From Shigella phage CT01, in the sequence record OK018184: a DNA stretch of 64,000 nucleotides. The stretch is one strand, 5' to 3'. The notes below the pieces were generated by a model. The model was not told the DNA's origin and searched no databases. It saw only the letters and a program-made list of their open reading frames with translations. The position numbers and the translations under genes were made by a program. This document shows positions 21,283 through 64,000 of this stretch, piece by piece (the stretch's first letter is position 1; each line of letters opens with the position of its first letter).

Positions 21283-22214
21283 TAGAATGCTCCTTGAAAA
21301 ATATTATCACCACTAGTAGGTCTATTATACAAATACTCTATGCCACCAGGTTTAATATAGTTCCATGTCTGAAACGGATGTGTCTGATATGGATGATATA
21401 GATGATTATTAGGTCTATTATACAAATACTCTATGCCACCAGGTTTAATATAGTTCCATGTCTGAAACGGATGTGTCTGATATGGATGATATAGATGATT
21501 ATAAGGATTTAATCCAGGCGTTCTCCAGGTAGTGTTCCAAGGAAAAGAATCGTTTTTAACCATCTTCTCAATTAAATCTTTTATAGCTTTTTCACTATCA
21601 AAACTTTCTTTATTTTCCTTCGGCGAAAAAAGCTTATTTTCTACATCATTCCATGTATAAACTCGCTGCGCAGTTTTTGGAATATTGTCACGCTCTCCTC
21701 GAGCCATCCAATAAACAGGAACATTTAATATTTCACTCGCATGATCGCAGTGATGAGCGAGATCGTCAATATAACAAATTACGTTATATTTCTCTTTTGC
21801 CTTTTTGAACAGCTCTTCTTTTGAAGAATCATGACCACACATCATTACTTCCGAGAAAGCACCAGGAAAAAGAGCATTCAAATTAAATTGACGATTCAAC
21901 AGAGCGTCAATAGAATCACCCAATGCTGTAACAGCTACAAAATTATAATCTTCTTTTAATTTGTTAATTACACACAGGGCATCTTTATACGGAGACAAGT
22001 AACGAATAAAATCTGAACGATTGTATTTTTCAATTAACTTGACGCCAAGTTCTTCGTCACAATTAAAGAGTTTACCCGGAGAAATAAATTTCTCATCTTG
22101 GATCATTTTTAAAATATGTTCTAATGGAAGATTATATTTCTGAGCAAAATAAGGAAGGCCTGATTGCCAGCTTAAACATACTCCATCAATATCAGTTAAA
22201 ATAGTTGGCTTCAT
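21282..22214 (-). CDS. HAD-like hydrolase-family protein (30.2 position) with in-frame 31-aa C-terminal duplication
   Basis: N-terminal DIDGV (DxDG) HAD motif; C-terminus repeats NHLYHPYQTHPFQTWNYIKPGGIEYLYNRP twice. Confidence 0.6.
   Translation of the reverse strand: MKPTILTDIDGVCLSWQSGLPYFAQKYNLPLEHILKMIQDEKFISPGKLFNCDEELGVKLIEKYNRSDFIRYLSPYKDALCVINKLKEDYNFVAVTALGDSIDALLNRQFNLNALFPGAFSEVMMCGHDSSKEELFKKAKEKYNVICYIDDLAHHCDHASEILNVPVYWMARGERDNIPKTAQRVYTWNDVENKLFSPKENKESFDSEKAIKDLIEKMVKNDSFPWNTTWRTPGLNPYNHLYHPYQTHPFQTWNYIKPGGIEYLYNRPNNHLYHPYQTHPFQTWNYIKPGGIEYLYNRPTSGDNIFQGAF
21317..21502. repeat. perfect 93-bp tandem duplication (2 copies) inside the 30.2 ORF
   Basis: 21317-21409 is identical to 21410-21502. 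Confidence 0.9.
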
Positions 22215-27143: not shown

Positions 27144-27664
27144 GTTGATCCTAGCTCCTTACTTTCAACGTTTTTAACTAATTTGACAGAAACTAATTCA
27201 GCATCTTGGGTAATCATTACCGGGCCTTCTTCATACTCTTCAAGATATTCTAGAGCTTTCTTTTTAGCTTCTTCCTTCGTATCAGTTTGAGCATAGATAT
27301 AAAACATACAACCAGTAATACCTACTACTTTCCACTTAATTTCTTTATCAGTTTTAATTTCAAATTTACTGATAGAGTCATCTTTTTGAACTTCTTCGAA
27401 AAAATAATATTCTGACATATAAGTAATTGAAAATAGCGGGCTATCTTTATAAGATTCGCCCATTACATCAACAGCTTTATACCAGCAATCGTCAATTTCG
27501 CGTTTAATGCTAATAACATTTTTCGCAGGATCTATTTTTACTTTAAATGAATTTTCCCCAATAAACTGAGCAATTCGTTTATTAGCCCCGCAAGTTTCAT
27601 TAAAAATATCTTTATATCCAGCTTTAAAGCGATAAACCTTATCTTCTTCAAACCATTCGCTCAT
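27137..27664 (-). CDS. hypothetical protein
   Basis: 175-aa ORF. Confidence 0.5.
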   Translation of the reverse strand: MSEWFEEDKVYRFKAGYKDIFNETCGANKRIAQFIGENSFKVKIDPAKNVISIKREIDDCWYKAVDVMGESYKDSPLFSITYMSEYYFFEEVQKDDSISKFEIKTDKEIKWKVVGITGCMFYIYAQTDTKEEAKKKALEYLEEYEEGPVMITQDAELVSVKLVKNVESKELGSTC

Positions 27665-32665: not shown

Positions 32666-33817
32666 TTAAAAGTATTTTTTAAAACTCATCATAACTTTAT
32701 CATCAACATCATTATCAATCTGTGCAACAAGGTAAGATGACAGTTCTACTTCTTGTGGCGCGGATTGAACATTATCAGAATTAAGGTATTCACGAATCCA
32801 AGGATATGGATGTTTAACCGGAGCATCGGTAATTGGGCATGGAAGACCGCACTGTTTCATACGAGATACAGTTAAGTAATCAATAAAGCTCCACATGCTA
32901 TTTGTATTTAATCCAGGAACATCGCCATCTTTAAATAAATGAACTGCCCAATCTTTTTCTTGGCGGTTAACTTCCATGAAAATATTAACTGCTTCTTGTT
33001 CACACTCTTGAGCAATTTTAACCCATTCGCCGCCATCAGTACCGGATTGAAGTTGACGAATAATATATTGGGTGCCTTTAAGGTGAAGCTGCTCATCACG
33101 TGCAATGAACTTCATAATCTTGGCATTACCTTCCATGATTTCCATGTTCTTATGGAAGTTAAAGGTACATGCAAAAGATACATAAAAACGAATAGCTTCT
33201 AAGGCATTAATAACGTGCAAACAGAGGTAAAGAGATTTCATTAGTGCTCGTTTAGCTTCGGCTTCTTGTTTAATAGCTCGATTTAAACGAAAAACAGCAT
33301 CAGGAGATTCTTTAGCTAGTTCTGTAAATTCTTTAGCATTTTCCCATTCACGGGTTTTAGTCAGAACATCATCATAATAGCGACCGATAGATTCAGCACG
33401 TTTCATGATAGCTTCATCTAGTACAATCTCATCAAATACCTTCGATGGATCAGTATAAAGATTTCGCATGATATGGGTATATGAACGGCTATGAATAGTT
33501 TCACTAAAAGTCCATGTAGCAACCCATGTATCAAGACTTGGGTCTGAAATTAATGACATAAGTACTGCAGACGGTGCACGACCCTGAATGCTATCTAGAA
33601 GTGATTGATACTTCAGGTTGTTAGTAAAAATATCTTGCTGATACTGAGGAAGCTTGTTAAATTGTGCAGCATCCATCATTAAGTTTACTTCTTCAGGACG
33701 CCAGAAAAATGACAACTGCTTTTCGGTTAAATCTTCAAAAACTTTATGACGTTGAATATCATAACGCGCAATACCAAGACCTGAACCGAAGAACATAGGT
33801 TCTTTTAAAACATTCAA
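32666..33817 (-). CDS. nrdB: ribonucleotide reductase small subunit NrdB, intron-less
   Basis: 383 aa continuous ORF with the di-iron ligand region; no intron or I-TevIII ORF. Confidence 0.9.
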   Translation of the reverse strand: MNVLKEPMFFGSGLGIARYDIQRHKVFEDLTEKQLSFFWRPEEVNLMMDAAQFNKLPQYQQDIFTNNLKYQSLLDSIQGRAPSAVLMSLISDPSLDTWVATWTFSETIHSRSYTHIMRNLYTDPSKVFDEIVLDEAIMKRAESIGRYYDDVLTKTREWENAKEFTELAKESPDAVFRLNRAIKQEAEAKRALMKSLYLCLHVINALEAIRFYVSFACTFNFHKNMEIMEGNAKIMKFIARDEQLHLKGTQYIIRQLQSGTDGGEWVKIAQECEQEAVNIFMEVNRQEKDWAVHLFKDGDVPGLNTNSMWSFIDYLTVSRMKQCGLPCPITDAPVKHPYPWIREYLNSDNVQSAPQEVELSSYLVAQIDNDVDDKVMMSFKKYF

Positions 33818-33947
33818 CTAAATTTTCCTTATCATCAGAACCTCCCATACATCTAGGGATTATATGATGTGTCTCTTTATATTCTGATAAAGATTCCCGA
33901 GCCTGAGCTCGGGAAATTAGGTCATTATAGATTTTTTGATAATTCAT
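33759..33947 (-). pseudogene. mobE: truncated HNH homing-endonuclease remnant (mobE-like)
   Basis: 62-aa ORF with HNH motif ETHHIIPRCMGGSDDKENLV that runs into the nrdB start; lies in the nrdA-nrdB gap where T4 has mobE. Confidence 0.5.
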
Positions 33948-34729: not shown

Positions 34730-34877
34730 ATCTTGATAGTCTAACAGGTTATCAAGTGCACGTACTTGAACTTCTGCTAATTCATTAATTTTATCTTGGT
34801 CTTGCCAATCGAAGTTATCCAACACAAATGCAGATAACGTGCACAATCCAATTTCAGCATCAGGACTATTCACATCA
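34730..34877. repeat. 148-bp direct repeat of nrdA sequence, left copy flanking the insert
   Basis: Identical to 35737-35884; encodes DVNSPDAEIGLCTLSAFVLDNFDWQDQDKINELAEVQVRALDNLLDYQD. Confidence 0.9.
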
Positions 34878-35736
34878 GTTCGACGCGTTGTTCTTGAAGA
34901 CGGATCACATACTTGGACTGCTAAACAAGATTTTAATGGCGCAGTTAACTTTAACTCTACTGTTAACCTTAATAACACTACCACATTTAAAACAGAAGTT
35001 AAATTCCGCTCGTTGAATGCATTCCGTATGTATGGCGGAAAATTTGGTACATTTTTACGTAATGATGGAGAGAGTCTTTATATTCTTTCCACCGACGAAG
35101 ATGATCAAGATGGAAACTTTAATACAAATAGACCTTTCCGTTATGAATTAAGAACTGGTGATGTTACTTTGGGTGGTGTTAGTGGTGCTAACGTTTTAAA
35201 ATTAAAACGTGATTCTCTCACCGCATTTTTTGGCGGTGATATTAACATGAAAGGCACGATGACTTTTGACGCCGGACGTTTAGGGTCACGAGATTATTTT
35301 AAATTTAACCATTGGGGTGATAGCAATAACGCTCGTGATAACATCATCCAGTTAGAAGATAGTCAAGGCGCTCATTTTTCCACTGAACGTACTTTAGCGA
35401 CTGGTGCAATTAAAACTCGTTTCTTTGGCGAAACATTCACTGATGGTACATTATACCTAAATCAGATGAATAATAGCTCTGAACGATTCCATATCAATAA
35501 TTGGGGAAATTCAGAAGTTGGTCGCGCGGCAGTGATGGAAGTCGGTGATTCCAAAGGTTATCACTTCTATACGGAACGCAGGACAGATAACAGTTTGACA
35601 TTTGATGTTGCTGGCACTTTTACCGTGCATGGACCTACCGGGATCACTATCAAAAACTCTGTTGGTGCTCGCCACATCTGGTTTAAAGATGATAGCGATG
35701 CAGAAAAGGCTGACAGTTTAATTACCTTCCGCAGTG
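34878..35736 (+). other. inserted segment derived from long tail fibre gene 37 (835 bp of gene 37 sequence plus 24-bp filler)
   Basis: 34876-35712 matches the gene 37 copy at 52582-53074 and also contains the 344 bp absent from that copy; 35713-35736 has no match in the window. Confidence 0.85.
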
Positions 35737-35884
35737 ATCTTGATAGTCTAACAGGTTATCAAGTGCACGTACTTGAACTTCTGCTAATTCATTAATTTTA
35801 TCTTGGTCTTGCCAATCGAAGTTATCCAACACAAATGCAGATAACGTGCACAATCCAATTTCAGCATCAGGACTATTCACATCA
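35737..35884. repeat. 148-bp direct repeat of nrdA sequence, right copy
   Basis: Identical to 34730-34877. Confidence 0.9.
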
Positions 35885-39049: not shown

Positions 39050-39876
<827 letters not shown>

Positions 39877-39884
39877 ATTATCTC

Positions 39885-40220
39885 CTAATATAAAGGATCG
39901 GGAACATATCCACTAGCTTTAATCATTTTGATTAATGTTAACATTCCTTTATTAACTGCTCGTGAGATTTCATCAAAAACTTCATCACTAAAAAGTTCTA
40001 ACACGCCCTTCTGAACTTTTAATTTACACCCAATAATTTCGTCATCGCCTATAGTAAATTCGTTTCCGCCAATTCCACCGAAAAACTTAATTGCACCAGT
40101 CAACTGTCTTCCACGAGAATATGGGTCGTGTGATAAAGTAATATGAGTCACCCCAGGTACAGTTTTAAATTGACAGCGGATGTTTACTTGGGCAATTCCA
40201 GTTACGTGAATGTCAGACAT
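39885..40220 (-). CDS. hypothetical protein (frd.2-like position)
   Basis: 111-aa ORF. Confidence 0.5.
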   Translation of the reverse strand: MSDIHVTGIAQVNIRCQFKTVPGVTHITLSHDPYSRGRQLTGAIKFFGGIGGNEFTIGDDEIIGCKLKVQKGVLELFSDEVFDEISRAVNKGMLTLIKMIKASGYVPDPLY

Positions 40221-40244
40221 AATATTTTCCTCAAACAGACTTTT

Positions 40245-41472: not shown

Positions 41473-42381
41473 TTAAAGGTCATTCAAAAGGTCATCCAGA
41501 TCCGTGTCATCAGCACTAGATGAACTGCCAGAGCTTGAGCTCATAAAATCATCTTCAGTTTTTGTTTTGAAGTCATCAACATTGAATGCATCCAAATCAT
41601 CAGCAACTTTATCAGCTTTCTTAGCGGCAGTTGCTGCGGCACCGCCCATAGCAGCAGTTCCCATAACTTGACTGAACTTAGTGCTCAGTTCTTCAAACGA
41701 TTTGAATTTATCTTTAGAAGTCATTTCAGAAAGGTCAACCATTTGTTCGAACAGTTCTTTCTGGAAAGATTCATCATCAATGTTTGGAATCGCAGATTGA
41801 TTCAGGAATTTAGATTCATCGTAGTTACTAAAACCAGAAACTTGTTTAACTTTCAGTACAAAGTTAGCACCTTCCCACGGACAAGTTACATCAACCGGAG
41901 TTTCACCCATTTCAACATCAACTGCAATCATTGCATTGATTTTATCCCAGATTTTCTTACCAAAACGGTATTTAAATACTTTACCTTCATTTTCTGGAGC
42001 AGCTGGGTCTTTTACTACAAGAATGTTAGCCCAGTAAGAAGTTTTACGTTTAACAAGACCGTACTCTTTATTGTCAGTGTTATACAAATCATTTTTACTG
42101 ATGTACTGACATACTGGACAAGAATCGTAATCACCGTGGGTAGATGAACAGTTTTCAATATACCATTTACCATTTTTCTTGAAACCGTGATTTACAAGAA
42201 TTGCGAATGGTGCTTGTTCATCATTTTTAGACGGAAGAAAACGAATTACTGCTTGACCGTTACCCGCATTATCGAGTTTCAGTTTCCACTCGCCTTTATC
42301 TTCAGAAGAAAAACTACCTTTATTTCCAGCCAGTTTAGCCATTTGTGCAGCGAGTTCAGCAGTAGATTTACGTTTAAACAT
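41473..42381 (-). CDS. 32: single-stranded DNA-binding protein gp32
   Basis: 302 aa; [17 protein letters not shown]..., acidic C-terminus [12 protein letters not shown]; matches recalled T4 gp32. Confidence 0.9.
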
Positions 42382-42628
42382 TTTTATTTCCTTTTTAATT
42401 TAATTAACAGTTGGTGCTATGACGATGTATGACCTCATAGCTGGTCAGTGAGATAATTATAATCTATTTATAATAAGCAATTAATACTTACAAGATTTCA
42501 CAGTTTCAATGAAAACACTTTTGGCTTTCTGTGAATCAATATTTAAAATTTTTCTATAAGCCTTTAACTTTATAGAATAATTATTCCAGACTAAATTATC
42601 AGTCTGTTCATCATGTTTATCAATTATA
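42091..42628. repeat. 538-bp direct repeat, copy 1 (gene 32 5' end, its leader, and the gene 59 3' end)
   Basis: Identical to 42692-43229 (offset 601 bp). Confidence 0.9.
42481..42628 (-). pseudogene. duplicated 3' fragment of gene 59 (last 48 codons)
   Basis: Encodes [48 protein letters not shown], identical to the gp59 C-terminus. Confidence 0.7.
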
Positions 42629-42691
42629 ATTCGAACTGATCTGTGTTTGTGCATTTGGGCATATGTTTGCGCGCGTAAAGCAGGCTGGTCG
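42629..42691. other. 63-bp unique spacer between the two 538-bp repeat copies
   Basis: No match found elsewhere in the window by eye. Confidence 0.6.
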
Positions 42692-42982
42692 ATTTTTACT
42701 GATGTACTGACATACTGGACAAGAATCGTAATCACCGTGGGTAGATGAACAGTTTTCAATATACCATTTACCATTTTTCTTGAAACCGTGATTTACAAGA
42801 ATTGCGAATGGTGCTTGTTCATCATTTTTAGACGGAAGAAAACGAATTACTGCTTGACCGTTACCCGCATTATCGAGTTTCAGTTTCCACTCGCCTTTAT
42901 CTTCAGAAGAAAAACTACCTTTATTTCCAGCCAGTTTAGCCATTTGTGCAGCGAGTTCAGCAGTAGATTTACGTTTAAACAT
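42692..42982 (-). pseudogene. duplicated 5' fragment of gene 32 (first 97 codons) fused to junction sequence
   Basis: Track ORF 42620..42982 begins with the gp32 N-terminus and then diverges into spacer-encoded residues. Confidence 0.7.
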
Positions 42983-43229
42983 TTTTATTTCCTTTTTAAT
43001 TTAATTAACAGTTGGTGCTATGACGATGTATGACCTCATAGCTGGTCAGTGAGATAATTATAATCTATTTATAATAAGCAATTAATACTTACAAGATTTC
43101 ACAGTTTCAATGAAAACACTTTTGGCTTTCTGTGAATCAATATTTAAAATTTTTCTATAAGCCTTTAACTTTATAGAATAATTATTCCAGACTAAATTAT
43201 CAGTCTGTTCATCATGTTTATCAATTATA
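42692..43229. repeat. 538-bp direct repeat, copy 2
   Basis: Identical to 42091-42628. Confidence 0.9.
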
Positions 43230-48300: not shown

Positions 48301-49217
48301 CTGTATTTGAAGTTAGTGATGAAACGTCTAGTCACTTTTATTCTCAGCGCAATAAAACTGGTAATATAACATTTAATATAAACGGTACAGTAACGCCGAT
48401 AAATGTGAATGCTTCAGGAACATTGAATGCGAATGGCGTTGCAACATTCGGTAGTTCAGTTACTGCTAATGGCGAATTTATCAGTAAATCATCGAATGCT
48501 TTTAGAGCAATAAACGGTGATTATGGATTCTTTATCAGGAATGGTGGCAGCATCACACATTTTATGCTCACTGAATCTGGCGACCAGACCGGTGGATTTA
48601 ATGGATTACGTCCTTTATCTATTAATAATGCATCTGGTCAAGTAACGATTGGTGAAAGCTTAATCATTGCCAAAGGTGCTACTATAAGTTCAGGTGGTTT
48701 AACTGTCAACTCGAGAATTCGTTCTCAGGGTACTAAAACCTCTGATTTATATACTCGTGCGCCAACATCTGATACTGTAGGATTCTGGTCAATCGATATT
48801 AATGATTCAGCCACTTATAACCAGTTCCCGGGTTATTTTAAGATGGTTGAAAAAACTAATGAAGTGACTGGGCTTCCATACTTAGAACGTGGCGAAGAAG
48901 TTAAATCTCCTGGTACATTGACTCAGTTTGGTAACACGCTTGATTCGCTTTACCAAGATTGGATTACTTATCCAACGACTCCAGAAGCACGTACCACTCG
49001 CTGGACACGTACATGGCAGAAAACTAAAAACTCTTGGTCAAGTTTTGTTCAGGTATTTGACGGAGGTAACCCTCCTCAACCTTCAGATATAGGAGCGATC
49101 CCATCTGATAATGGAATAATAGGTAATCTTACTATTCGCGATTTCTTGCGAATTGGTAATGTTCGCATTATTCCTGACCCAGTGAATAAAACTGTTAAAT
49201 TTGAGTGGATTGAATAA
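45348..49217 (+). CDS. 34: long tail fibre proximal subunit gp34
   Basis: 1289 aa, same length as T4 gp34. Confidence 0.9.
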   Translation: MAEIKRKFRAEDGLDAGGDKIINVALADRTVGTDGVNVDYLIQENTVQQYDPTRGYLKDFVIIYNNRFWAATDNIPKPAGSFNRIRWKALRTDAVYTTVSSGPYQLKSGEAISVDTSVGNDIEFNLPPSPLDGETVIIQDIGGKPGINQVKINSSNQSIVNFRGEQVRSVLMTHPKSQMIFIFNNRLWQMYVADYSREAAIVTPSTAYQAQSNDFIVRRFTSAAPINIKLPRFANHGDIINFVDLDKLNPLYHTIVTTYDETTSVQEVGTHSIEGRTSIDGFLMFDDNEKLWRLFDGDSKARLRIITTNSNIRPNEEVMVFGANNGTTQTIELQLPTDISIGDTVKISMNYMRKGQTVKIKAAGEDKIASSVQLLQFPKRSEYPPEAEWVTVQELVFNGETNYVPVLQLAYIEDSDGKYWVVQQNVPTVERVDSLNNSTRARLGVIALATQAQANADLENSPQKELAITPETLANRTATETRRGIARIATTAQVNQNTTFSFADDLIITPKKLNERTATETRRGVAEIATQQETNTGTDDTTIITPKKLQARQGSESLSGIVTFVSTAGATPASSRELNGTNVYNKNTNNLVVSPKALDQYKATPTQQGAVILAVESEVIAGQSQEGWANAVVTPETLHKKTSTDARIGLIEIATQSEVNTGTDYTRAVTPKTLNDRIATESLSGIAEIATQVEFDAGVDDTRISTPLKIKTRFNSTDRTSVVALSGLVESGTLWDHYTLNILEANETQRGTLRVATQVEAAAGTLDNVLITPKKLLGTKSTEAQEGVIKVATRSETVAGTSANTAVSPKNLKWIVQSEPTWAATTLVRGFVKTSSGSITFVGNDTVGSTQDLELYEKNNYAVSPYELNRVLANYLPLKAKAVDSNLLDGLDSLQFIRRDIAQTVNGSLTLTQQTNLSAPLVSSSTATFGGSVSANSTLTISNTGTATRLIFEKGPQTGTNPAQTMTVRVWGNQFSGESDTTRSTVFEVSDETSSHFYSQRNKTGNITFNINGTVTPINVNASGTLNANGVATFGSSVTANGEFISKSSNAFRAINGDYGFFIRNGGSITHFMLTESGDQTGGFNGLRPLSINNASGQVTIGESLIIAKGATISSGGLTVNSRIRSQGTKTSDLYTRAPTSDTVGFWSIDINDSATYNQFPGYFKMVEKTNEVTGLPYLERGEEVKSPGTLTQFGNTLDSLYQDWITYPTTPEARTTRWTRTWQKTKNSWSSFVQVFDGGNPPQPSDIGAIPSDNGIIGNLTIRDFLRIGNVRIIPDPVNKTVKFEWIE

Positions 49218-49225
49218 GAGGTATT

Positions 49226-50341
49226 ATGGAAAAATTTATGGCAGAGTTTGGACAAGGATATGTCCAAACGCCATTTTTATCGGAAAGTAATTCAGTAAGA
49301 TACAAAATAAGCATAGCTGGTTCTTGCCCGCTTTCTACAGCAGGACCATATGTTAAATTTCAGGATAACCCTGTCGGAAATCAAACATTTAGCGCAGGTC
49401 TTCATTTAAGAGTTTTTGACCCTTCAACAGGAGCATTAGTTGATAGTAAGTCATATGCTTTTTCTACTTCAAATAATACTACATCAGCTGCTTTTGTTAG
49501 TTTCATGAATTCTTTGTCAAACAATAGACTTGTTGCTATATTAACTAGTGGAAAGGTTAATTTTCCTCCTGAAGTGGTATCTTGGTTAAAAGGAGCAGGA
49601 ACTTCAGTTTTTCCATCAGATTCCGTATTGTCAAGATTTGACGTATCATATGCTGCTTTTTATACTTCTTCTAAAAGAGCTATTGCATTAGAGCATGTTA
49701 AACTAAGTAATAGAAAAAGCACAGATGATTATCAAACTATTTTAGATGTTGTATTTGATAGTTTAGAAGACGTCGGAGCTACGGGATTTCCTAAAAGAAC
49801 ATATGAAAGTGTCGAGCAATTTATGTCAGCGGTTGGTGGAACTAATAACGAAATTGCGCGATTACCAACTTCAGCTGCTATAAGTAAACTATCTGATTAT
49901 AATTTAATTCCTGGTGATGTTCTTTATCTTAAAGCACAGTTATATGCTGATGCTGATTTACTTGATCTTGGAACTACAAATATATCCATTCGTTTTTATG
50001 ATGCATCAAATGGATATATTTCTTCAACACAGGCTGAGTTTACTGGACAAGCTGGGTCTTGGGAATTAAAGGAAGATTATGTAGTTGTTCCTGAAAATGC
50101 AGTCGGATTTACTATATATGCGCAGAGAACTGCTCAAGCTGGTCAAGGCGGAATGAGGAATTTAAGCTTTTCTGAAGTATCAAGAAATGGCGGCATTTCA
50201 AAACCTGCCGAATTTGGCGTCAATGGTATTCGTGTTAATTATGTCTGTGAATCGGCTTCACCTCCAGATATAATGGTACTTCCTACACAAGCCTCTTCTA
50301 AAACTGGCAAAGTGTTTGGGCAAGAATTTAGAGAAGTTTAA
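49226..50341 (+). CDS. 35: long tail fibre hinge connector gp35
   Basis: 371 aa, T4 position. Confidence 0.85.
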   Translation: MEKFMAEFGQGYVQTPFLSESNSVRYKISIAGSCPLSTAGPYVKFQDNPVGNQTFSAGLHLRVFDPSTGALVDSKSYAFSTSNNTTSAAFVSFMNSLSNNRLVAILTSGKVNFPPEVVSWLKGAGTSVFPSDSVLSRFDVSYAAFYTSSKRAIALEHVKLSNRKSTDDYQTILDVVFDSLEDVGATGFPKRTYESVEQFMSAVGGTNNEIARLPTSAAISKLSDYNLIPGDVLYLKAQLYADADLLDLGTTNISIRFYDASNGYISSTQAEFTGQAGSWELKEDYVVVPENAVGFTIYAQRTAQAGQGGMRNLSFSEVSRNGGISKPAEFGVNGIRVNYVCESASPPDIMVLPTQASSKTGKVFGQEFREV

Positions 50342-50346
50342 ACTGA

Positions 50347-50368
50347 GGGAGCCTTTGGGTTCCCTTTT
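50347..50368 (+). terminator. hairpin with T-run after gene 35
   Basis: gggagcc-tttgg-gttccc followed by tttttcttt. Confidence 0.45.
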
Positions 50369-50372
50369 TCTT

Positions 50373-50380
50373 TATAAATA
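50373..50380 (+). promoter_or_regulatory. late promoter TATAAATA upstream of gene 36
   Basis: Exact TATAAATA about 24 nt before the ATG. Confidence 0.55.
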
Positions 50381-50403
50381 ATATTAAAATAAAGGGGCAT
50401 ATA

Positions 50404-51096
50404 ATGGCTGATTTAAAAGTAGGTTCAACTGTGGGTGGATCTGTCATTTGGCATCAAGGAAATTTTCCATTGAATTCAGCCGGTGACGATGTACTCTACA
50501 AATCATTTAAAATATATTCAGAATATAATAAACCGCAGGCAGCTGATAACGATTTCGTTTCTAAAGCTAATGGTGGTACTTACACCGGTCCAATTACTAT
50601 TAATTACGGGGTAAATAGTTATCTTCAATTAAGTAATAATGAAACCCCTATCCGAATTCGTTCTGGTGGCGGCACCGGTAATACTCTTGTAATTGGTGGA
50701 TCTTCTGGTGGTATTAGTTTTAGACCTGCAGGTAGTGAAATCACTACTGGACAAATTAGTTTTAGACCTGCAGGTAGTGAAATCACTACTGGACAAATTA
50801 CTATTACGCCAGAAGGTTTGACAACATTCACCAAAGCTGTAAAGGCTCCATCTGTAACTGTTACATCTACTCCTTCCGCAGCATCAGATGCTACTCGTAA
50901 AGATTATGTTGATGGAGCAATAAATACTGTTACAGCAAATGCAAACTCTAGAGTGTTACGATCTGGTGACACCATGACAGGAAATTTAACTGCGCCAAAC
51001 CTTTTTTCACAGAATCCTGCATCTCAACCTTCACACGTTCCACGATTTGACCAAATCGTAATTAAGGATTCTGTTCAAGATTTCGGCTATTATTAA
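50404..51096 (+). CDS. 36: long tail fibre distal connector gp36 (with internal 14-aa tandem duplication)
   Basis: 230 aa; N- and C-terminal regions match recalled T4 gp36; [14 protein letters not shown] occurs twice. Confidence 0.8.
50713..50796. repeat. perfect 42-bp tandem duplication (2 copies) inside gene 36
   Basis: attagttttagacctgcaggtagtgaaatcactactggacaa repeated back to back. Confidence 0.9.
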
Positions 51097-51104
51097 GAGG
51101 ACTT

Positions 51105-53835
51105 ATGGCTACTTTAAAACAAATACAATTTAAAAGAAGCAAAACCGCAGGTCAACTTCCTGCTGCTTCAGTATTAGCCGAAGGTGAATTGGCTATTAAT
51201 TTAAAAGATAAAACAATTTTCACAAAAGATGACTCAGGCAATGTTATAGAATTAGGTTTAAAATATGGAGGAACAATTGATGGTTCTTTAACTGTTAATG
51301 GAAATATAATTGGAAATTTAACAGGTAACGCTGCAACTGCAACGAAATTAAAAACAGCACGAAAAATTAATGGTATATCCTTTGATGGGTCAAAAGATAT
51401 CACGCTAACTCCATCCGACATAAATGTCAATAGCACAACGTTTATAAAAAATAACGGCGAATTACCTGTTGATGCTAATTTAGATACGTATGGGCCTGTT
51501 GAAGAATATCTTGGAGTTTGGTCGAAAGCAACTTCAACCAACGCTCAACCAGCAAATAAATTTCCAGAAAACAATGCTGTAGGTGTGCTAGAAGTATTTG
51601 TGGCCGGTCAATTTGCTGGTACTCAGAGATATACAACTAGATACGGAAATGTTTATATTCGTTCCTTGACTGCTACATGGAACGGAGTAAATGGTCCGTG
51701 GAGTGTGTGGCGAAATATTCAATCCGGTACTCGTTCACTGTCAACAACAATTGATCTTAATGATCTAGGAGGTGCTGAACATCTTGGTTTGTGGCGAAAT
51801 AGTTCAAATTCCATTGCTACCTTTGACAGAAATTTCCCAGAAGAGGGGTCGTCAGCTCAAGGTCTTTTGGAAGTATATGAAGGTGGAAACTATTCTCGTA
51901 CACAAAGATATACAACCAGATTTGGTGTTGTTTATACTCGCTGTCTTACTGCTGCGTGGGATGCTTCTGCGCCTAAATGGGGACCGTGGCAACAAGTCGG
52001 TAATGTCACACCGGCGACTTTCTATGACGGAAACCTGAATGATTTTAAAACTCCTGGGTTATATAATATTTTAGGCACTGATGCCGTTATTAATTGTCCT
52101 ACAGGCGAAGGTTTACCAGCCGTTATTGTTGGTTTGCTGGAAGTTAAACAGCGTGCTTCTGGCGGTGCTATTTTCCAAAAATTTACTACTGCCGGAACAG
52201 GTGCAACTACCCGCGATCGTATTTTTGAGCGCGCATATACCGGCGGTGTGTGGGGTGAATGGAACGAAGTATACACATCTTATTCTCTACCAATTACTTT
52301 GGGTATGGGCGGTATTAAATCTAACTTAGCAGAGTTAGACTGGCAAGCATTTGATTTTGTTCCTGGTAGTATGTTTAGCGTTCCTTTGAACAAAATAAAG
52401 AACATGCCAGCTAATATGGATTGGGGTACGATTGACGGAAACTTAATTATGTTTTCTGTTGGTCCTAGCGAGCACACCAGCACAGGACGTACTGTTCAGG
52501 TTTGGCGTGGAACTGTATCCCAGACAAACTATCGTTATTTTGTCGTTCGTGTATTCGGTAATCCAGGGAGTAGAACATGTACAGTTCGACGCGTTGTTCT
52601 TGAAGACGGATCACATACTTGGACTGCTAAACAAGATTTTAATGGCGCAGTTAACTTTAACTCTACTGTTAACCTTAATAACACTACCACATTTAAAACA
52701 GAAGTTAAATTCCGCTCGTTGAATGCAAGGCGCTCATTTTTCCACTGAACGTACTTTAGCGACTGGTGCAATTAAAACTCGTTTCTTTGGCGAAACATTC
52801 ACTGATGGTACATTATACCTAAATCAGATGAATAATAGCTCTGAACGATTCCATATCAATAATTGGGGAAATTCAGAAGTTGGTCGCGCGGCAGTGATGG
52901 AAGTCGGTGATTCCAAAGGTTATCACTTCTATACGGAACGCAGGACAGATAACAGTTTGACATTTGATGTTGCTGGCACTTTTACCGTGCATGGACCTAC
53001 CGGGATCACTATCAAAAACTCTGTTGGTGCTCGCCACATCTGGTTTAAAGATGATAGCGATGCAGAAAAGGCTGTTATCTGGGCTACAGATGAGGGTATT
53101 TTACATATTCGCAATAATCATGAGGGTTCATTTAGTCATCACTTCCAGGGTGCAATGATTAAACTGGAAGGGCGTGTTCCTTATGGTGCAGCAAAAGGGC
53201 TTATTCGAGGCGAGATAGACGGTGGTGCATATGTTGCATGGAGAGACCGCCCTGCTGGTTTGTTGGTTGACTGCCAGAAAAGTATTGACAGTGCTCATGC
53301 TGTTTGGAAAGCGGTTGATTGGGGGCGTCAATATATCGCTGCTATGGACGTTCATTGTCCGGGTGATGGTAATAATACTGCGGCAGCGGTTCTTCATGTT
53401 CAGGCTGCTGATTATCAATTCCATGCAAGCGGAGAATTTCATGCCACTGGTAACGGGAACTTTAACGATGTGTATATTCGTTCCGATGGTCGTCTGAAAA
53501 TTAATGTTGAAGATTATACAGGAAATGCGTTAAGTTTGATCGGCAAACTGAAAGTGAAAACTTACGATAAAGTTAAATCTCTTAAAGACCGTGAAATTAT
53601 CGGTCACGAGATCGGCATTATCGCACAGGATTTACAAGAAATATTACCGGAAGCTGTAAAATCTTCAAAGGTTGGCAATCTTGATAATCCAGACGATGTT
53701 CTGACAATTTCTAACTCTGCTGTGAATGCTCTTTTAATTAAGGCTATTCAGGAAATGAGTAAAGAAATTAAAGAATTGAAAACTCCTTTCTTTACTAAAA
53801 TTGCTCGCAAAATTAGTAAATATTTTAAATTCTAA
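51105..53835 (+). pseudogene. 37: long tail fibre distal subunit gene 37, broken by a 344-bp frameshifting deletion at 52727/52728
   Basis: Two overlapping ORFs in different frames (51105..52748 and 52723..53835); the missing 344 bp is present in the copy inside nrdA at 35022-35365. Confidence 0.8.
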
Positions 53836-61820: not shown

Positions 61821-62378
61821 TTAAATGGAAAGATACCATCCGTTGTAGTTGCTTTTTCTTACAACCTTACGAAGGTCTTCTCTATCACCGACGAACTTCG
61901 GAGTGTACTGGATGACACCTGGATGAATTTCTTTAGTGTTGAATATAATTATACAGTCAGCGACTTGATGATTCAGAATGGGCCCTAGATTTATTCCAGA
62001 ACCGTATGGATACTCTCCGCTGCATCCGGTTGTTACAGAAATCCAACGTGAGTCAGTTTGGTGTGTCTTAACTTCTACGCGAATCCCGCAGTATCTTGGA
62101 TGCGCCAATACATCCCATGCGTATGTATACGGGTCATTAACATCCTCTTGGCCTTTGTTAACATACCCGCTTAGCCAATCTGCTACAAAAAACTCTGCGT
62201 ACACCGCGATACGGCATCTTTCGATAACTTCTGCTTTATCCTGATTTGGATTTTGTTTTAAAGAGTATCTTGCTGTATCAGCAATTTTGACCTTCATTTC
62301 ACTAGTCAAGTCACTGTTCGATAGGGTAAATGTCGGAATCTGAAATAGTCTCTGTAAACCCGGATTCGTTTTCTGCAT
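61821..62378 (-). CDS. denB: endonuclease IV (DenB)-like protein
   Basis: 185 aa, T4 denB length and position between ndd and rIIB; identity by synteny and length only. Confidence 0.6.
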   Translation of the reverse strand: MQKTNPGLQRLFQIPTFTLSNSDLTSEMKVKIADTARYSLKQNPNQDKAEVIERCRIAVYAEFFVADWLSGYVNKGQEDVNDPYTYAWDVLAHPRYCGIRVEVKTHQTDSRWISVTTGCSGEYPYGSGINLGPILNHQVADCIIIFNTKEIHPGVIQYTPKFVGDREDLRKVVRKSNYNGWYLSI

Positions 62379-62719
62379 TAAACTTTCCTTTTACGTCGGA
62401 ATCACTGATATTCATACAATAAATCATAACTTCCCTTAAAACAAAAGGGCCGAAGCCCCTTATTTTATTTGAATTGTGCAATTCTTTTCTCTATCTTGCT
62501 GTATCAGCAATTTTGACCTTCATTTCACTAGTCAAGTCACTGTTCGATAGGGTAAATGTCGGAATCTGAAATAGTCTCTGTAAACCCGGATTCGTTTTCT
62601 GCATTAAACTTTCCTTTTACGTCGGAATCACTGATATTCATACAATAAATCATAACTTCCCTTAAAACAAAAGGGCCGAAGCCCCTTATTTTATTTGAAT
62701 TGTGCAATTCTTTTCTCTA
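62266..62719. repeat. perfect 226-bp tandem duplication (2 copies) spanning the denB 5' end, its upstream region with terminator, and the 3' end of the 64-aa gene
   Basis: 62266-62491 is identical to 62492-62717; boundaries ambiguous by 2 bp. Confidence 0.9.
62446..62468 (-). terminator. hairpin gggc-cgaa-gccc plus T-run; further copies at 62672-62694 and 62903-62925
   Basis: aaaagggccgaagccccttattttatttgaattg occurs three times. Confidence 0.5.
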
Positions 62720-63858: not shown

Positions 63859-64000
63859 AATTTTCCTTATTAGGCCGCAAGGGCCTTCATAGTTTTAGCG
63901 ATTTGGGAAACTTCATCATCACTTAAAGAATTGGGGTTGTATGTTTTATATCTATGCTCAAACTGATACGAAGGAAGAAGCTAAAAAGAAAGCTCTAGAA

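Follow-up and report, generated by a model that had tools for sequence, protein, structure and literature searches.

The long tail fibre region of Shigella phage CT01 raises the question of whether a perfect 42-bp tandem duplication within gene 36 belongs to the phage itself or only to its deposited sequence. We analysed the locus in a stretch of 64,000 nucleotides of CT01 DNA, which is called the window throughout. According to PMC13602300, the CT01 record is OK018184.1. Gene 36 was found at 50404-51096 on the + strand and encodes a protein of 230 aa, gp36, whose close relatives have 216 aa. The gene had been identified in the earlier note as the tail-fibre connector gene 36 from the sequence alone, and this identity was borne out by the family match, by the neighbouring genes and by the annotation of relatives. 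Over residues 154-204, CT01 gp36 matched the Pfam family PF03903 (Phage_T4_gp36) with 27.9 bits, above the gathering score of 26, and its homologues likewise bear a precomputed PF03903 match. The gene stands between those for gp35 and gp37 in the T4-type order 34-35-36-37-38 (ORFs of 1289, 371, 230, 547 + 370 and 260 aa), an order that matches the annotated genomes of SF2-1 and EcNP1. In relatives, the annotation of gene 36 is that of a long-tail-fibre hinge connector, the distal connector. CT01 gene 36 is an ordinary member of the gp36 family.

The gp36 trimer adjoins the gp35 knee-cap and makes up the distal rod together with the gp37 trimer (PMC5537660; bioRxiv 10.64898/2026.03.06.709160). 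In our alignment, invariant columns marked conserved ends at about residues 1-59 (N-terminal) and 164-230 (C-terminal), both of which are intact in CT01 and presumably contact gp35 and gp37, respectively. The extra 14-residue unit falls in the variable middle segment, and it is in this segment that gp36 varies in length across allele classes, from 216 to 234 aa. A sequence search of the PDB found no relative of gp36, and an AlphaFold2 model of the monomer was unusable (mean pLDDT 41, pTM 0.14). As a side observation, a 171,536-bp contig with T4-type gp36, gp37 and gp38 is deposited as Bacillus cereus (PJZ22119, PJZ22120, CEW46_09275); this is presumably a case of phage contamination or of a mislabelled bacterial assembly.

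Direct reading of the sequence and Tandem Repeats Finder (50713-50800, period 42, 2.1 copies, 100% matches, 0 indels, score 176) both confirmed the in-frame perfect duplication reported in the earlier note at 50713-50796. Two identical 42-bp units, ATTAGTTTTAGACCTGCAGGTAGTGAAATCACTACTGGACAA, stand head to tail on the + strand with 100% identity over 2 x 42 bp. Copy 1 (50713-50754) encodes residues 104-117 and copy 2 (50755-50796) encodes residues 118-131, so that one 14-residue unit is indeed coded twice by identical DNA and gp36 reaches 230 aa. The alignments of relatives break at 50755-50758, where copy 2 begins. Directly after copy 2, the four bases ATTA (50797-50800, + strand) repeat the first four bases of the unit and extend the identical block to 46 bp. 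These bases are an Ile codon and the first base of the Ser/Thr codon that open successive 14-residue units (ISFRPAG and ITITPEG). Microhomology of at least 4 bp at the junction has a chance probability of about 0.005. Since only about 1e-19 perfect 42-bp tandem repeats are expected in 64 kb at a per-base match probability of 0.27, the repeat itself is not a product of chance. The duplication creates a novel junction in which ACTACTGGACAA is joined to ATTAGTTTTAGACC (in short form, GGACAA joined to ATTAGTTTT). Identical head-to-tail copies and short homology at the junction, the marks by which a slippage-type tandem duplication is recognized, were both present.

The duplicated unit also coincides with exactly one period of a weak 14-residue motif in gp36, I-x-[IF]-[RT]-[SP]-x-G, which occurs as IRIRSGG at residue 83, as ISFRPAG at residues 104 and 118, and as ITITPEG at residue 132. 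The motif was defined post hoc from the gp36 sequence itself, and the periodicity is for this reason weak evidence.

The duplication is a feature of the deposit. The exact 230-aa protein is present in NCBI as UDY80642.1, "tail fiber protein [Shigella phage CT01]", encoded on a contig of 168,362 bp, and its neighbours are exact as well: gp35 is UDY80641, gp38 is UDY80645, and between gp36 and gp38 come a "hypothetical protein" of 547 aa (UDY80643) and a "tail fiber protein" of 370 aa (UDY80644). Because the gp35-gp38 region corresponds exactly to these consecutive CT01 proteins, UDY80641 to UDY80645, the duplication was not added later, and a planted or synthetic change in the window was ruled out.

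We compared gene 36 with its relatives in nucleotide and protein collections. Whole gene 36 was matched by 169 records of the phage collection, and among the matches listed all aligned in two pieces over 654 bp, whereas the CT01 gene has 696 bp. The genes of EcNP1 and Nami were 100% identical to that of CT01 except for the 42 bp. The alignment with RB phages that had been proposed as a check gave a single copy in RB3, RB5, RB6, RB7, RB9 and RB10, whose gene 36 is 97.6% identical, and in about 160 others. At the protein level, the best eight clusters from a search of 5.8 billion all had 216 aa with 92-93% identity over the query, a value that means identity or near identity outside the gap; a 230-aa gp36 was not found among these eight. 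The novel junction was found neither in IMG/VR nor in GTDB genomes, and a 20-mer across it had six chance matches in JGI metagenomes, of 20-22 bases only and none in gene 36. With IMG/VR and GTDB empty and the metagenome matches lying outside gene 36, occurrence of the duplication elsewhere in nature was rejected.

Independent assemblies that share neighbouring proteins with CT01 gave the same result. Those with exact CT01 gp35 (Logan SRR21919633 and phage DCP2) and the four Logan contigs with exact CT01 gp38 encode gp36 of 216 or 218 aa, and in these assemblies gp37 is intact. The SRR21919633 contig showed 0 mismatches to the window over about 48750-51614, the 42 bp aside. A search for an independent assembly of the same strain found no exact CT01 gp36 and gp34 on record elsewhere. 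The duplication thus occurs in one record only and is missing from close relatives and from independent assemblies, a distribution expected of an artefact.

At least seven further structural anomalies specific to the record were detected in the window, none of them present in the closest relative, SF2-1. Self-comparison of the window revealed eight repeat pairs, the gene 36 duplication among them (seven 100% identical and one 98%), without counterpart in the orthologous 68 kb of SF2-1; the five short or weak natural repeats of that SF2-1 region are all common to the window. Alignment of the window with SF2-1 showed about 12 sharp breakpoints, and the segments between them were mostly 98-100% identical, with two at 96-97%. 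In one of the anomalies, a 93-bp unit of the gene 30.2 homologue on the - strand is perfectly duplicated in tandem and in frame (93 bp x 2, 21317-21502), and the gene encodes 319 aa against 287 aa in SF2-1. Coverage of the query reached at least 80% in 489 relatives, and the relatives listed all matched 708 bp against 801 bp in CT01. Self-comparison also detected a 226-bp unit that is perfectly duplicated in tandem (226 bp x 2, 62266-62719) and takes in the denB 5' end together with the region upstream; in the search with this locus, relatives spanned about 770 or about 983 bp in two or four pieces, and none covered the query in one piece. Searches of the phage collection, with hundreds of relatives, showed that both the 93-bp and the 226-bp duplications are unique to the record.

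At the boundary of genes 59 and 32, a perfect 538-bp direct repeat spans 42091-43229 (42091-42628 = 42692-43229), and its copies are separated by a GC-rich filler of 63 bp (42629-42691). A search of 5,426 E. coli genomes did not find the filler, on which ground host DNA was rejected as its source; phages gave no full match, and comparison ruled out a diverged gene 59 allele. At the very end of the window (63935-64000), a 66-bp perfect inverted copy of 27248-27313 begins where collinearity with SF2-1 stops, in rIIA. The junction at 63935 is chimeric or inverted and continues beyond the window. A few more differences in length from SF2-1 were observed: about 184 bp missing from an intergenic region at about 24637, a surplus of about 591 bp that includes two small ORFs at 39633-40226, about 124 bp missing at about 40445, and about 200 bp missing, amounting to one small ORF, at about 61740. 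These may be ordinary T4-type indels.

The most informative anomaly lies next to gene 36. A deletion of 344 bp in gene 37 has its junction at 52726-52727 on the + strand, 1.9 kb downstream of the gene 36 duplication and with 2 bp of microhomology. Since 344 is not a multiple of three, the deletion shifts the frame and breaks gene 37 into two deposited proteins, encoded by ORFs at 51105-52748 (547 aa, UDY80643.1) and 52723-53835 (370 aa, UDY80644.1). SF2-1 and five independent Logan contigs align across 52727, each with exactly 344 bp more, and intact gp37 in these six relatives has 1022-1080 aa. The missing 344 bp were found 17 kb from gene 37, inside nrdA, as part of an 837-bp gene 37 fragment (34876-35712, + strand) that also carries flanks of 146 bp and 349 bp. 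The fragment is followed directly by a 24-bp filler (35713-35736), which had no match in E. coli, phages or the adjacent gene. A perfect 148-bp duplication of nrdA brackets the insert (34730-34877 = 35737-35884), and nrdA is cut into two ORFs by the gene 37 fragment. In the same region, a deletion of 628 bp relative to SF2-1 at 33812-33819 takes out most of a gene for a homing endonuclease that lies between nrdA and nrdB, together with the first 11 codons of nrdB, start codon included.

The distal fibre subunit is the product of gene 37, which, as established by T4 genetics, is essential for the infectivity of T4-type phages. Because this gene is broken in the record, a plaque-forming phage cannot have this genome, and since a viable phage cannot carry it, the structure given in the record must be wrong in at least some places and is not reliable. 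The gene 36 duplication occurs in the company of record-specific anomalies of which some are incompatible with viability.

This series of anomalies specific to one record, one of them wrecking the adjacent gene 37, tips the balance toward an artefact. We conclude that the 42-bp duplication in gene 36 is probably a fault of the deposited sequence record and is not in the genome of the viable phage. The earlier note had taken the perfect identity of the copies to suggest a very recent or artefactual event; the hedge was sound, and the context of the record, which had not been seen at that stage, favours the artefactual side. The real gene 36 of CT01 is most likely the 654-bp, 216-aa allele, base for base that of EcNP1 and Nami. 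Library preparation or assembly probably gave the record a series of clean structural errors, among them the gene 36 duplication, and the series would comprise tandem and near-tandem duplications with perfect copies, the relocation of a fragment, deletions and an inverted junction. A common origin of the gene 36 duplication and the other anomalies is suggested by their association. The faulty places in the record are clean perfect-copy events similar in style to the duplication in gene 36. Candidate technical causes would be polymerase template-switch chimeras formed at microhomology, or joining errors made by the assembler or by hand.

Several observations run counter to a technical origin. 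The usual behaviour of De Bruijn assemblers is to collapse short tandem repeats, not to create them. Both intragenic tandem duplications, of 42 and 93 bp, are multiples of three, which has a chance probability of 1/9. The bases around the site are of excellent quality, and two relatives match them with 0 mismatches. Microhomology, register with the motif and in-frame lengths are what real, tolerated slippage would show, although template switching in vitro also yields microhomology.

On these grounds we weighed a real and very recent tandem duplication in vivo, fixed or dominant in CT01, and regard it as unlikely. Slippage of the nascent strand, or recombination between the ATTA microhomologies 42 bp apart (ATT-A(G/C)T codons), would have produced it, and the variable middle segment of the gp36 shaft would have gained a 14-residue unit in each chain, three units in the whole trimer. 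A slight lengthening of the distal rod close to the knee would be the predicted result, with the conserved ends of gp36 untouched; the change in fibre length or geometry put forward in the earlier note would depend on the duplication being real. The perfect in-frame copies, the 4-bp homology at the junction, the error-free flanks and, more weakly, the register with the 14-residue periodicity all fit such an event, as do the two in-frame lengths of 42 and 93 bp. So does the site, a segment of gp36 that varies among classes from 216 to 234 aa, between two intact termini. In-frame duplications in tail-fibre genes are moreover on record, in EfV12-phi1 (PMC6365445) and, as cited there from Tetart et al. 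1996, in T4 gp37. Against this, none of at least 169 relatives has the duplication, nor does any of the metagenome, viral and genome collections searched, and the record has at least seven other unique anomalies, including the lethal frameshift in gene 37 and the relocated gene 37 fragment. With such anomalies in the same record, its structural calls are not trustworthy.

The duplication might also be real in a minority of molecules only. T4-type replication is highly recombinogenic, and a lysate could hold rearranged or defective genomes complemented by the wild type; the assembler would then have threaded variant junctions into the consensus, and the duplication would exist in some molecules and not in the infectious majority. 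Junction microhomologies of 4, 2 and 2 bp are as expected for illegitimate recombination, base-level accuracy is high, and only in molecules that are complemented or non-viable could the lethal lesion of gene 37 and the insertion in nrdA be retained. Direct support for a mixed population was lacking, however, and an assembler normally takes the majority path. The junctions with 24-bp and 63-bp fillers and the inverted junction, moreover, look more like chimeras formed in vitro. We consider a minority variant very improbable. A crude join of contigs from two co-assembled phages is not supported at the gene 36 site, because the closest relative stays the same across 50757 and across 52727, and the same relatives match the two flanks with no mismatch.

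Were the duplication real and fixed in CT01, which we doubt, the trimeric shaft of gp36 would have grown, naturally and only lately, by exactly one structural repeat of 14 residues. Tail-fibre rods would then have been caught changing length unit by unit before the copies diverged, and the locus would offer a small, tidy case of unit-wise evolution of fibre-shaft length. As in-frame tail-fibre duplications are already documented, it would not establish a new principle even so. With the duplication read as a probable fault of the record, the locus serves mainly as a caution. UDY80642 to UDY80644 stand in NCBI nr and could pass for natural variants in surveys of host range or fibre engineering, and a phage-therapy paper of 2026 (PMC13602300) has already used the CT01 record as a closest reference.

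A comparison with known systems places the locus as follows. CT01 shares with the 216-aa allele class of RB3, ACG-C40 and EcNP1 a common gene, the PF03903 family and the position between genes 35 and 37, and the conserved N- and C-terminal regions are identical. The alleles of RB3, RB5, RB6, RB7, RB9, RB10, ACG-C40 and ZN18 are 97-99% identical to the 654 bp of CT01; the extra 14-residue unit and the length of 230 aa occur only in CT01. Fibre genes are known to undergo tandem duplication. Enterococcus phage EfV12-phi1 has a 1.8-kb in-frame tandem duplication in its tail-fibre gene (PMC6365445), and a tandem duplication in the T4 gp37 adhesin is attributed in that paper to Tetart et al. 1996. 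Like the duplication in CT01, these are head to tail, in frame, in a long-tail-fibre gene and composed of identical copies. They lie in or beside the receptor-binding part, are tied to selection for host range or resistance, occur in varying copy number and have been confirmed with PCR and long reads, whereas the CT01 unit has only 42 bp and sits in the connector gp36, far from the receptor-binding tip. Receptor binding is effected by the gp37 tip and gp38 (PMC5537660; bioRxiv 10.64898/2026.03.06.709160), and gp36 stands at the knee end of the distal rod, so that the CT01 duplication is outside the region in or adjacent to which adaptive duplications are expected. Structural errors in deposited phage assemblies offer the third comparison. 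They resemble the case of CT01 in being features of one record, in their perfect copies, in gene-breaking rearrangements and in an essential gene annotated as two fragments, while the junction microhomology and in-frame lengths seen in CT01 are compatible with, yet not required by, an artefact.
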